Source of the DNA: an uncultured Gammaproteobacteria bacterium
GTDB lineage: Bacteria; Cyanobacteriota; Vampirovibrionia; Gastranaerophilales; CAZEDP01
Reading direction: 5' to 3'
DNA length: 64,000 nt
Assembly (NCBI GenBank): GCA_964643065.1
Contig: CAZXPD010000005.1
Span: 8 to 64,007, forward strand
The position numbers were made by a program, and so were the translations under genes. The notes below the pieces were generated by a model, which ran no database searches, was not told where the DNA came from, and was given only the letters and a program-made list of their open reading frames with translations. Shown piece by piece: positions 6,511 to 10,089 of the stretch (positions are counted from its first letter, which is position 1; each line of letters begins with the position of its first letter).

Positions 6511-7317
6511 TTAACTTTCTCCTTTAAAATCGTAAATATTTCTAATTCTTTCAATTCTGTTTGAACATCCGGTTTGCGTATTAATCAATATTTCTACAGC
6601 GTTTACTTCTGTTTTTTCGGACATAACCACATCATATCTTTCAGGCAAACCGGTTGTAAGTCTTTTTAACGAACTTTCGGTTTCCATGCCTATTACTCCG
6701 TCATAAATTCCGCAAAAGCCGGCATCTGTTATATATGCACAACCGTTACCAAGGATTCTTTCATCGGATGTTTGGATGTGTGTATGAGTACCGATAACGG
6801 CACTTACACCCAATCTGTCGGCAAAATAGCCCATGGAAATCTTTTCTGCGGTTGCTTCGGCATGAAAATCTATTATCACAATATTAGTTTTTTCTTTGAT
6901 TAATTTTATCACTTTTTCAAGGCTTTCCCATGGCGAATCAATAGGGTTCATAAAAACCCTTCCTAACAGATTAATAACGCAGATTAAACAGCCGTTAACT
7001 TCAAAAAAATCGTATCCCTTGCCCGGAACTGAGCAAGGGTAATTTAGAGGTCTGATTAGTTTATCTGCTTTATGTATATAATTAAAAATTTCTTTTTTAT
7101 CCCAAATATGATTACCGGAAGTTAAAACATCTATACCGTAACCAAGCAAATCAAAATAGTTTTTTTCGGTCAGTCCGAAACCATGTGAAGCATTTTCAGC
7201 ATTAGCAATGATGAAATCGGGTTTTTCACCGATTTCATCAAGGTATTTTGCTGCTGAGTGGCGTCCCGGCCGTCCTACTATATCACCTAAGAACAGGACT
7301 TTGAGAAAGTTGTTCAT
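6511..7317 (-). CDS. ymdB: YmdB-family metallophosphoesterase (TIGR00282-like)
   Basis: [46 protein letters not shown] overlap with the rny stop. Confidence 0.93.
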
Positions 7318-8858
7318 TTTGCAATTTCCGTAGTCCTTATTTCTCTAACTACCGTTACTCTTATTTGACCCGGATAATCAAGTTCTGTTTCTATACGTTT
7401 TGCAATATCTCTGGCAAGCTTACTTGAAGCGACATCATCAAAAACAGTAGGTTGAACCATAACCCGGATCTCACGACCGGCTTGCACCGCAAAAGATCGT
7501 TTTATCCCTTCATAGCTCATAGCAATTTCTTCAAGTTTTTGAATACGCTTAATATAAATTTCCAGAGTATCACGCCTTGCTCCCGGTCTTCCGGCGCTCA
7601 TTGAGTCTGCAATTTTAACGAGAACCGCTTCGACGGAATTAGCTGCCACATCGTCATGATGGGCTTCTATCGCATGTATTACCGCTTCATTCTCACCATA
7701 GCGTCTTGCATACTCAACACCAAGCTGTATATGAGTACCTTCATGTGTTTGATCAACGGCTTTACCGATGTCATGAAGTATTCCGGCTCTTTTCGCCAAA
7801 TTAATATTCACGCCCAGTTCAGTTGCAAGCATGCCGGCAAGATGTCCAACCTCAATAGAGTGTTTAAGAACATTTTGTCCGTAGCTTGTTCTGTAATACA
7901 ACCGCCCGAGCATTTTTATCAATTCAGGATGAATGTTTATTATGCCCATTTCGAGCATTGCGGATTCGCCTTCTTTAAACATTCTTTCTTCAACTTCTTC
8001 CCGGGCTTTGGTAACCATATCTTCGATTCTGACCGGATGAATTCTGCCGTCGGTAATCAATTTTTCCAAAGCAGTTTTGGCAACTTCCCTTTTAACAGGG
8101 TCAAAGCACGATAACACAACCGCTTCAGGAGTATCATCAATGATTAAATCAACTCCTGTAAGTGTTTCTAAAGCTCTTATATTTCTGCCTTCTCTGCCTA
8201 TAATTCTTCCTTTCATTTCATCATTCGGAAGATTGACAACTGATACCGTAGATTCAACAACCTGATCTATAACACATCTTTGCATTGATTCTGAAATAAT
8301 TTCGCGAGCCTTTGAATTAGAGGTTTCTTTAATATAGACTTCATTTTCGCGAATAAGCTGAGCTGCTTCCATCTTAAGCTCATCTTCAAGCTGCCTCAAA
8401 AGCAAAGCCTTTCCTTCTTCGGCAGTAATACCGGAAATTCTCTCAAGTTCTCTCAGCTGTTTTTCGACCAGTTCGGCAAGATAATCTTCTTTATCACAGA
8501 GTTCATCGAGTTTTTTTGCTAGGTCTTGTTCTTTTTGACTAACCGTATTGGATTTTAACTCAAGATTTTCCTCTTTTTGAAGAAGTCTCTGCTCTAGTCT
8601 TGCAAGTTCTGTTTTTCTTTCCCTGATTTCGTTTTCGAATTCCTGTCTTTGGTTATGAAGGGCTTCTTTGGCTGAAATCAGTGCTTCTTTACGTTGAAGC
8701 TTTATTTGTTCCTCTGCTTCTGCTGATTTTCTTGAAGCTTCGGCTCGAATTTGCTCTACCTGAGAACTTTTGACTTTTAATTGAAAGTGAAGATATATTA
8801 TATAGGTTATTAGTGCAACTACGGTTACTGATATTATTATTTGACCGATATTTTCGAT
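7314..8858 (-). CDS. rny: ribonuclease Y (514 aa from inferred non-canonical ATC start)
   Basis: KH ([13 protein letters not shown]) and HD (LHDIGK) domains. The frame stays open 151 codons upstream of the track's TTG at 8405 and encodes the coiled coil and N-terminal TM helix ([24 protein letters not shown]). The start position is less certain than the identity. Confidence 0.95.
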
Positions 8859-8880
8859 TGTCCTATACCTCGTATTTCTT

Positions 8881-8910
8881 ATTGTAACGACATTTGGTGC
8901 GGACAGTCAA
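8881..8910 (-). promoter_or_regulatory. sigma70-type promoter of rny-ymdB-PHP
   Basis: On the minus strand TTGACT(8910-8905)-N18-TACAAT(8886-8881), followed by SD GAGGT (8871-8867). Confidence 0.7.
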
Positions 8911-9030
8911 AAAGGACACTATCGATCCTAGCAATTACAATATTATCATATAATGTAATTTTTCACCAACCAATAAAATATTATTTGCCCGCTTTGTCGG
9001 TCATTTATTGATAATTGAGATAAATTGTTA

Positions 9031-10089
9031 TCATTCTTCGGATATTGTGTCGGATACAGCTGCTGACGTCGTTGAATTTATATTTTCTCTTATTTTAGTT
9101 TCAATTTCAGCTAATATATCAGGATTTGCGGTTAAAAATTCTTTTACTTTTTCTTTGCCTTGTCCGATTTTTGAATCACCGTAGCTGAACCATGCACCTG
9201 ACTTGTTAATGATATTCATAATCGTTGCTACATCAATAATGCAGCCGATTTTTGAAATACCTTCGCCGTATATAATATCAAATTCAGCCAATCTGAAAGG
9301 CGGAGCAACTTTATTTTTAACAACTTTAACTCTTGTTCTGTTGCCAAATTCCTGTCCGTCTTTCTTTAAGGTTTCTATTCTTCTGATATCAAGCCTTACG
9401 CTTGCATAATACTTAAGAGCATTTCCACCGGTAGTAGTTTCGGGGTTGCCGAACATAATGCCGATTTTTTGTCTGAGCTGATTTATAAATATTATTGTCG
9501 TTTTAGTTTTGCTGACAATGGCAGTCAGCTTTCTCAAAGCCTGACTCATAAGCCTTGCCTGAAGACCCATATGGCTGTCTCCCATTTCCCCTTCGATTTC
9601 TGCGCGGGGGACGAGAGCGGCAACTGAGTCTATTACTATAACGTCAATAGCACCGGATCTTACAAGCTCCTCAGCTATATCAAGAGCTTGTTCTCCTGTA
9701 TCAGGCTGGCTTATAAGAAGTTCATCAACTTTTACGCCCAGTTTTCTCGCATAATCAGGATCAAGGGCATGCTCTGCATCAATGAATGCACATATACCGC
9801 CTTGTTTTTGAGCTTCAGCTACGATATGCTGGGCAAGTGTTGTTTTGCCGCTGCTTTCAGGACCGTATATTTCGATAATTCTGCCTCTCGGCACTCCGCC
9901 TACGCCTAATGCGATGTCTAATGAAAGGGCTCCTGTTGGAATTGAATCTACGTTTAATGTGACTTTATCGCCAAGGCGCATAATAGAGCCTTTGCCGAAG
10001 TCTTTTTCTATTTTGTCTATCGCGTTTTCAAGAGCTTTTTTCCGTTCTTTGGAGGCTTCATCAACTTTTGATTTTTCTTCAACAACCAT
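9031..10089 (-). CDS. recA: recombinase RecA
   Basis: [51 protein letters not shown]. Confidence 0.99.

Follow-up and report, generated by a model that had tools for sequence, protein, structure and literature searches.

A conserved ribosome-binding module and an AUC codon probably initiate translation of RNase Y in a Gastranaerophilales-type bacterium

RESULTS

A membrane-anchored RNase Y frame that lacks a canonical start codon

In the window (the whole 64,000-nucleotide stretch of contig CAZXPD010000005.1 analyzed here), the minus-strand gene rny would encode a 514-amino-acid, membrane-anchored RNase Y initiated by a dedicated ribosome-binding module at the AUC codon at 8858–8856, and AUH (H being A, C, or U) would be the majority state of this start in Gastranaerophilales-type Melainabacteria. 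From sequence comparison, we put the probability of this reading at about 0.8. Melainabacteria are non-photosynthetic and form the sister group to the Cyanobacteria. In bacteria with RNase Y, this enzyme starts most of the mRNA decay, and both its amount and its attachment to the membrane influence gene expression globally. The features of the reading frame are as follows.

7314–8858, minus strand: proposed rny coding sequence, 514 codons from ATC (8858–8856) to Lys (7319–7317), with the stop TGA at 7316–7314; product RNase Y.
8907–8909, minus strand: upstream in-frame stop TGA, the boundary of the frame as read.
8403–8405, minus strand: TTG, the first canonical in-frame codon (codon 152) and the pick of callers that accept only ATG, GTG, or TTG; its 363-amino-acid product lacks the transmembrane (TM) helix and most of the coiled coil.
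8781–8843, minus strand: N-terminal TM helix, residues about 6–26, seen in the translation and in periodic T at codon position 2 over 105 relatives; Pfam RNase_Y_N begins at residue 7.

Reading the frame from TGA 8909–8907 to TTG 8405–8403 gave 167 sense codons without a single ATG, GTG, or TTG, in agreement with a preliminary description of this DNA. In 22 other window genes, 3.9% of the in-frame codons are one of these three triplets, which gives a probability of 0.002 for finding none in 151 codons; the start-less run is therefore improbable by chance. The remaining 363 codons of rny hold 23 of them. Near-cognate codons in the start-less stretch include CTG 8906, ATA 8882, ATC 8858, ATC 8849, and ATA 8840, 8837, and 8834.

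The start-less part of the frame had been said to encode a TM anchor and a coiled coil, and the profile matches bear this out, with RNase_Y_N beginning at residue 7 and TIGR03319 at residue 9. Counted from ATC, the frame has the 514 codons proposed earlier. The product scored 684.1 bits against TIGR03319 RNase_Y (cut-off, 454.35), an equivalog-level match in which residues 9–514 cover profile positions 2–514. Pfam placed RNase_Y_N at residues 7–198, KH_1 at 208–265, and HD at 330–422. The translation thus has the domain order of RNase Y, i.e., a TM helix (hydrophobic residues 6–26), the coiled-coil RNase_Y_N, KH, and HD with the LHDIGKA and EAHHDD motifs. By these matches the product is a full-length membrane-anchored RNase Y, with predicted enzymatic activity and membrane location.

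Among about 50 long open reading frames (ORFs) in the window, rny alone has its first canonical start more than 15 codons past the upstream stop (antisense shadow ORFs excepted). The start problem is confined to rny within the window and belongs to this gene rather than to the genome as a whole; the scan of these ORFs gave no sign of genome-wide non-AUG start use within the window. An alternative genetic code with TGA as a sense codon was ruled out because recA and rny both terminate in TGA where homology stops, so TGA is a true stop in this genome.

The bases in question are reproducible. Assemblies of runs from three studies (biofilm, 2018; unlabelled, 2025; bioreactor, 2019) showed zero differences at 8856–8858 and 8871–8873, and L001, a contig from an unrelated metagenome that is ~95% identical in this region, carries the same ACGAGGTATAGGACAATCGAAAATATCGG. 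Assembly error is ruled out by the three independent assemblies together with this strain. An ATG at 8858–8856 in reads or close relatives, named in the preliminary description as the observation that would count against the start, did not appear, as all three assemblies and the ~95%-identical strain keep ATC.

Conservation of AUH and its ribosome-binding module

8856–8858, minus strand: proposed initiation codon ATC (AUC), at a fixed 8 nt from GAGGT; ATT, ATC, or ATA stands at the homologous position in 107 distinct loci, and the third base is never G in the motif class.
8867–8871, minus strand: Shine-Dalgarno (SD) core GAGGT at −13 to −9, near-invariant (G 98, A 100, G 99, G 104, and T 95 of 105 sequences) and among the strongest SDs in the window.
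8859–8866, minus strand: 8-nt spacer ATAGGACA, consensus A-Y-R-G-G-A-M-A in the information profile, with GGA at −5 to −3 as invariant as the SD.

Related DNA was surveyed in 80 GTDB species representatives and 80 metagenome contigs with an N-terminal alignment as the query, and each rny frame was read back to its upstream stop. The comparative set comprises 161 related Melainabacteria (Gastranaerophilales-type) rny loci. At the protein level, the top matches were all RNase Y of Melainabacteria/Gastranaerophilales with 68–81% identity, annotated lengths of 448–539 amino acids, and widely different N-termini. Several annotated homologues carry variable extensions ahead of a shared peptide, RYRTIENIG. 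Judged from the underlying nucleotides, this "peptide" is really a nucleotide element, A(A/C)GAGGTA(T/C)(A/G)GGA(C/A)A followed by ATH.

The arrangement GAGGT-N8-ATH, in frame just ahead of the TM helix, was found in 107 distinct sequences among the 161 loci, with ATT in 47, ATC in 37, ATA in 23, and a third-base G in none. The distance of 8 nt between GAGGT and ATC given in the preliminary description is exact and recurs in all 107. ATH occupies the homologous position in 74 of the 80 GTDB species-representative loci. The 5'-end alignment suggested earlier as a check for a conserved ATC, ATT, or ATA therefore has a divided outcome: AUH is conserved, and ATC specifically is not (AUU > AUC > AUA). 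Zero canonical codons lie between the upstream in-frame stop and ATH in 66 of the 107 motif loci. An in-frame stop lies no more than 6 codons upstream of ATH in 21 of them (2 codons in L011), so ATH is the first codon able to initiate there. Where ATG, GTG, or TTG is present upstream, it is scattered (−5, −8, −10, −17, −22, and others) and has no SD. The first canonical codon downstream of ATH is usually a Leu or Val codon within the TM helix at a varying position, and it lies more than 40 codons downstream in 14 loci.

An information profile of 105 distinct sequences aligned on ATH revealed a single contiguous block of conservation from −15 to +5 and stayed flat beyond −18 on the 5' side. If the block were translated, its third codon positions would include −1, −4, −10, and −13, and these carry 1.05–2.39 bits. 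After ATH, third positions fall to ~0.05–0.6 bits, and second positions show the 3-periodic T that marks a hydrophobic helix. Since third positions are constrained upstream and codon periodicity appears only after ATH, constraint of the translational type starts at ATH, and the upstream constraint acts on the RNA or DNA itself. The spacer GGA was found at 103, 88, and 102 of 105 AUH-class sequences, base by base. Taken together, rny has a near-cognate AUH at a functional distance from an SD, no canonical start before the conserved N-terminal segment, and conservation of this state among orthologues.

Across the window (about 45 gene starts), roughly half of the genes have no recognizable SD within 20 nt of their first canonical start. 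Those with an SD mostly carry AAGGA or four-base matches, and the GAGGT of rny is unusually strong by comparison. GAGGTNNNGGANA occurs at a ribosome-binding site only at rny within the window. The gene infC, sought in the window to compare initiation regions, was absent from it.

Several other explanations of this region were rejected. Extended SD/anti-SD pairing does not account for the spacer, because the bases past GAGGU are off the anti-SD register, as reasoned from the sequence. The block is not the −10 promoter of a leaderless mRNA, as TAYRGG lacks the invariant final T. Termination-reinitiation from an upstream ORF stopping at the UAG inside GGUAUAGG fails because the UAG is not conserved and relatives show UACAGG, UACGGG, or UAUGGG. 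ACG 8873 was dismissed as an ATG-derived start or an editing site since the codon there is not conserved; across relatives, codon −5 is AAG, ACG, TTG, CTG, or ATG.

RNA-run contigs of the Candidatus Adamsella rny (L022) from four chicken-gut metatranscriptomes keep ATC unchanged and show that the gene is transcribed; such contigs drop minority variants and are weak evidence on editing. They span recA into rny and do not give the 5' end. A search for RNA runs of the window itself returned none.

Several contigs whose GTDB record titles read "uncultured Muribaculaceae" or "uncultured Gammaproteobacteria" (L014, L018, L024, L033, L067, L080, and L081) carry a Gastranaerophilales-type rny with the same module. 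These labels on metagenome-assembled genomes are probably wrong.

Relatives that use AUG

About 36 distinct relatives, i.e., about a quarter, use ATG, located at this site or close to it, and the ribosome-binding site is remodelled in each. The ATG-class sites include GAGGTATGTC-ATG with a 5-nt spacer, GAGGTATAAACA-ATG with a 7-nt spacer, GAGGT-N11/12-ATG, and AAGGT-N9-ATG, and the spacer GGA is lost in all ATG lineages. A group from mouse gut has acquired a 1-nt insertion that puts the ATG of GTATGGG in frame, 3 codons upstream; its SD has degenerated to GAAGT, and in L059 of this group the former ATH is now CTA. Fitch parsimony on a neighbour-joining tree counted no fewer than 13 interchanges of T, C, and A, together with about 7 switches between AUH and AUG. 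The tree therefore portrays AUH as a long-lived majority state, not an absolute requirement.

The two classes also differ in early canonical codons: over rny codons 2–170, in-frame ATG, GTG, and TTG number 6.7 on average for the AUH class vs 9.3 for the AUG class. In the window clade they are nearly absent from the first 150–190 codons (window 8406–8855 corresponds to codons 2–151), and L003, L082, L086, and L111 have none. This scarcity could reflect avoidance of internal starts that would yield an anchor-less enzyme, or it could be a compositional effect.

The upstream region of the rny transcript

8940–8948, minus strand: candidate extended −10 element TGATAATAT, about 90 nt upstream of the start, predicting a transcription start site near 8933 and a 5' untranslated region (UTR) of ~75 nt.
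8881–8910, minus strand: promoter-like TTGACT-N18-TACAAT of the preliminary description, 10 of 12 matches, with hexamers that are not conserved in relatives.
8901–8911, minus strand: upstream strand TTTGACTGTCC (UUUGACUGUCC), complementary to GGACAATCGAA (GGACAAUCGAA, 8863–8853), which comprises spacer, AUC, and the next codon.

On the minus strand, recA (10089–9031) is followed by a gap of 172 nt, rny, and a gene for a ymdB-type metallophosphoesterase (7317–6511). The rny stop and the ATG of the ymdB-type gene overlap as ATGA (7314–7317), and the order recA, rny, ymdB is kept in L001, as in Bacillus.

The extended −10 element at 8948–8940 is a candidate that, on sequence comparison, is probably the real rny promoter. 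The exact TGNTAATAT occurs at −47 to −143 from ATH in 23 of 100 related loci vs 0 of 100 coding controls, and the alignment of upstream regions agrees. The TTGACT-N18-TACAAT promoter put forward in the preliminary description fared less well: the sequence is present, whereas its hexamers lack conservation and promoter-like matches are no more frequent here than chance would give in AT-rich DNA (3 vs 1.7 ± 1.2 expected). As the conserved −10 predicts transcription from near 8933, TTGACT-N18-TACAAT falls within the predicted 5' UTR.

The minimum free energy fold of 8933–8835 has −24.3 kcal/mol (z = −2.9), and its helix between 8911–8901 and 8863–8853 would bury the spacer and AUC. The same predicted fold pairs GAUCGAUA near the 5' end (8920–8927) with UAUCGGUC in codons 4–6 (8843–8850). 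It is possible, as modelled, that the strand at 8901–8911 is a start-sequestering helix partner specific to the window clade, which we offer as a lead, not a finding. RNAalifold on eight close relatives kept 9 pairs of the long-range helix with zero covariation. A clade-wide start-sequestering helix was rejected, as the duplex z-score over 101 loci has a median of ~0, and values below −2 are limited to the window clade and a small number of other clades. The motifs CGGCUGUCC and GCUAGGAUCGA recur in close relatives at variable spacing (37–198 nt). No Rfam family matched within 8700–9100.

Gut relatives have a different structure, a hairpin of 6–11 bp just upstream of RGAAAGAACGAGGUA, about 50–22 nt before ATH (z < −1.5 in 18 of 20 loci; mean z = −3.4). 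It was observed at L024, L031–L033, L035, L036, L042, L043, L045, L050, L053, L055, L057, L058, L065, L069, L079, L081, and L118. The stems vary by locus (GUGCAU/AUGCAU, GUACAU/AUGUAC, AUACAC/GUGUAU, and others) and thus represent a covarying stem-loop, which is probably located at the mRNA 5' terminus. The 3' arm of the stem-loop often gives rise to an in-frame ATG or GTG, not conserved, 10 codons upstream. RNAalifold returned no consensus for the gut-clade leaders, whose variable stems were misaligned by MAFFT, and per-sequence folding was used instead.

Annotation of the rny N-terminus

Public databases disagree on where rny begins, and the protein sets for these organisms give at least four N-termini for one and the same locus. 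P0099, from the L001 strain (the closest relative; 98% identical), is called at TTG with 363 amino acids. In the NCBI proteins P0015, P0016, and P0031, the first codon is precisely the conserved ATC or ATA, and in NCBI P0003 (locus L083) it is an ATA 7 codons farther upstream. The starts chosen by other pipelines are TTG +10, GTG +12, ATG +23 to +31 (without the TM helix), GTG +60, or TTG +151. For the single rny locus L008, at least three different N-termini are on record (ATC 0, TTG +10, and GTG +12), L009, L004, L083, L001, and others are also affected, and many public protein calls are without the TM helix. The earlier expectation that automated callers would cut off 151 codons and drop the anchor holds for callers restricted to ATG, GTG, and TTG, as in P0099 and, as to the anchor, many other calls; it does not hold for the three relatives that NCBI starts at the conserved codon. 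Such anchor-less records would mislead work on localization, structure, and phylogeny.

DISCUSSION

The alternatives to initiation at AUC 8858–8856 differ in how they account for the missing canonical start. Callers restricted to ATG, GTG, and TTG begin at TTG 8405, as in P0099, which would give a soluble 363-amino-acid RNase Y without an anchor behind 151 untranslated codons. Such a start is very improbable, since those 151 codons remain open, match RNase_Y_N and TIGR03319 from profile position 2, share 70–80% protein identity with relatives, and show coding periodicity, while the TTG is not conserved as a start and has no SD ahead of it. The absence of a start codon might instead be an artefact, either a sequencing or assembly error or a private mutation from ATG to ATC or ACG in a decaying gene, and a few close relatives (L003, L082, L085, and L111) indeed show ATG where the window has ACG 8873–8871. 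We consider this explanation already refuted: the X1, X3, and X8 contigs (from three unrelated studies) and L001 agree at both codons, upward of 100 distinct loci have ATH, the HD and KH motifs and the 684 bits to TIGR03319 show an intact gene, and codon −5 is free to be AAG, ACG, TTG, CTG, or ATG. Editing of AUH to AUG in the RNA, or recoding by frameshift from an upstream ORF, found no support and was considered only because codon −5 is ACG in the window and ATG in relatives. We give it next to no credence. The third base is T, C, or A, and no single editing chemistry turns all of these into G; the Adamsella transcript contigs with unchanged ATC point the same way, weakly for the reason given above; and there is no conserved upstream ORF in any frame and no conservation beyond −18.

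Initiation at another in-frame near-cognate, i.e., ATA 8882, ACG 8873, CTG 8906, ATC 8849, or ATA 8840, 8837, or 8834, is improbable. Each of these codons does lie in the rny frame, ahead of the TM helix or at its edge; for P0003, NCBI chose an ATA 7 codons upstream as the start; and roughly half of the relatives have ATH as codon 4 too. The ATH at 8858, however, is alone in being invariant and 8 nt from the SD. ATA 8882, ACG 8873, and CTG 8906 lack an SD and positional conservation, ATC 8849 is 17 nt from GAGGT, and upstream starts are excluded in L006, L009, L011, L035, and others by an in-frame stop 2–8 codons upstream. The main function of the block could also lie in RNA regulation (as a protein site, a site for RNase Y itself, or a strand of a 5' UTR switch), with the non-AUG codon as a by-product. 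Conservation of the spacer GGA equals that of the SD and is unexplained by SD/anti-SD pairing, the window clade has a UGUCC-containing upstream strand complementary to the spacer and AUC (z = −2.9), and gut relatives have a different, covarying 5' hairpin. Nonetheless, this is unlikely as the primary role, since the third base is free among T, C, and A and so lies outside any sequence-specific site, the long-range helix lacks covariation, and the complementarity is absent in most clades (median z of ~0). Such an element would still need AUH as the start and therefore complements initiation at AUC and does not replace it.

Several points weigh against AUC initiation and its functional interpretation. 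AUC is a very poor initiator in model bacteria. Some in-frame canonical codon lies upstream in 41 of the 107 motif loci, and many loci have a TTG or GTG within the TM helix, so that alternative starts are possible locus by locus. AUH is not obligatory, judging from the about 7 AUH/AUG switches among the compared sequences. The predicted 5' UTR fold pairs the SD-proximal spacer and AUC and, if real, would further depress initiation. Additionally, the functional interpretation (throttling, IF3 coupling, and autoregulation) is drawn wholly by analogy.

We propose that the initiator tRNA reads the near-cognate AUC 8858–8856, with the module A(A/C)GAGGUA-Y-R-GGA-M-A positioning the ribosome at an AUH in which AUU, AUC, and AUA would be interchangeable. 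An SD that is unusually good for this genome would keep the poor codon usable. By established knowledge and the analogy with infC, pcnB, and ccpN, the weak AUH start may keep RNase Y synthesis low, and it would presumably make synthesis sensitive to IF3 and to initiation capacity. Throttling of translation or IF3 coupling by the weak start is thus plausible by analogy. More speculatively, and by analogy with Bacillus subtilis (PMC10303841), sparse initiation may expose the 5' region of the mRNA to RNase Y and sharpen autoregulation.

Known systems offer partial precedents. Start codons other than AUG, GUG, and UUG are not accepted by IF3 and are repressed, infC autoregulation being an example (PMC5499595). 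Like infC (AUU, AUC, or AUA in the Escherichia coli type; AUA in Staphylococcus aureus), rny has a near-cognate AUH conserved over many species, a good SD, and expected IF3 discrimination (PMC5499595, PMC13009471). In contrast to infC, rny encodes an endoribonuclease and not a codon-sensing factor; any IF3 effect would therefore be feed-forward coupling, not autoregulation. Its AUH conservation is also clade-wide in Melainabacteria, not pan-bacterial, and about a quarter of distinct relatives have AUG. The E. coli gene pcnB, for poly(A) polymerase I, is likewise an RNA-decay gene with a non-canonical AUH-type start, and its output is limited by AUU (established knowledge, cited in PMC5499595). 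It encodes an unrelated protein in another organism, however, and an invariant SD-spacer module as in rny is undescribed for pcnB.

In S. aureus, the conserved AUA/AUU starts of infC, ccpN, and cvfC1 give ~10% of AUG output in reporters (PMC13009471). The genes ccpN (AUA; S. aureus and B. subtilis) and S. aureus cvfC1 (AUU) resemble rny in a conserved non-canonical start with a strong, well-spaced SD, an arrangement read there as translation attenuation (PMC13009471). They have extended SD/anti-SD pairing, whereas rny has a 5-nt core (GAGGU) and a separate invariant spacer GGA, and their starts were mapped experimentally (Ribo-RET), whereas the rny start is known from sequence comparison. The rny of B. 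subtilis belongs to the same enzyme family and the same recA…rny-ymdB neighbourhood. It has an AUG start and a 164-nt leader and holds its own expression down through cleavage of its 5' UTR and of the ORF's first ~100 nt, an autoregulation whose outcome depends on how far ribosomes occupy the start site (Korobeinikova et al. 2023, PMC10303841). The window, in contrast, has a weak initiation codon and a predicted, structured leader of ~75 nt.

Conserved non-canonical starts are already known as attenuators. An AUH start with an invariant module on rny across a class-level lineage appears undescribed; our literature search found no paper with both "Melainabacteria" and "RNase Y" and none relevantly linking RNase Y to non-canonical starts. 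A further interpretation, which we hold tentatively and with more doubt than belief, is that GAGGU-AYR-GGA-MA-AUH serves Melainabacteria rny as an element dedicated to translational control and is more than a weak start. The GGA in its spacer would work together with 5' UTR structures that differ by clade (the anti-start strand in the window clade and the covarying hairpin in gut relatives), and RNase Y synthesis would be set by initiation capacity (IF3 and 30S availability) or by RNase Y activity on its own leader. If this were true, global mRNA decay would be coupled directly to translation status.

With initiation of rny at AUH, a core enzyme of RNA decay would join the very few genes (infC, pcnB, and ccpN) whose non-canonical starts are deeply conserved. 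With ~100 natural variants and ~7 natural reversions to AUG for comparison, rny in the Melainabacteria offers a testable link between initiation fidelity (IF3) and RNA turnover.

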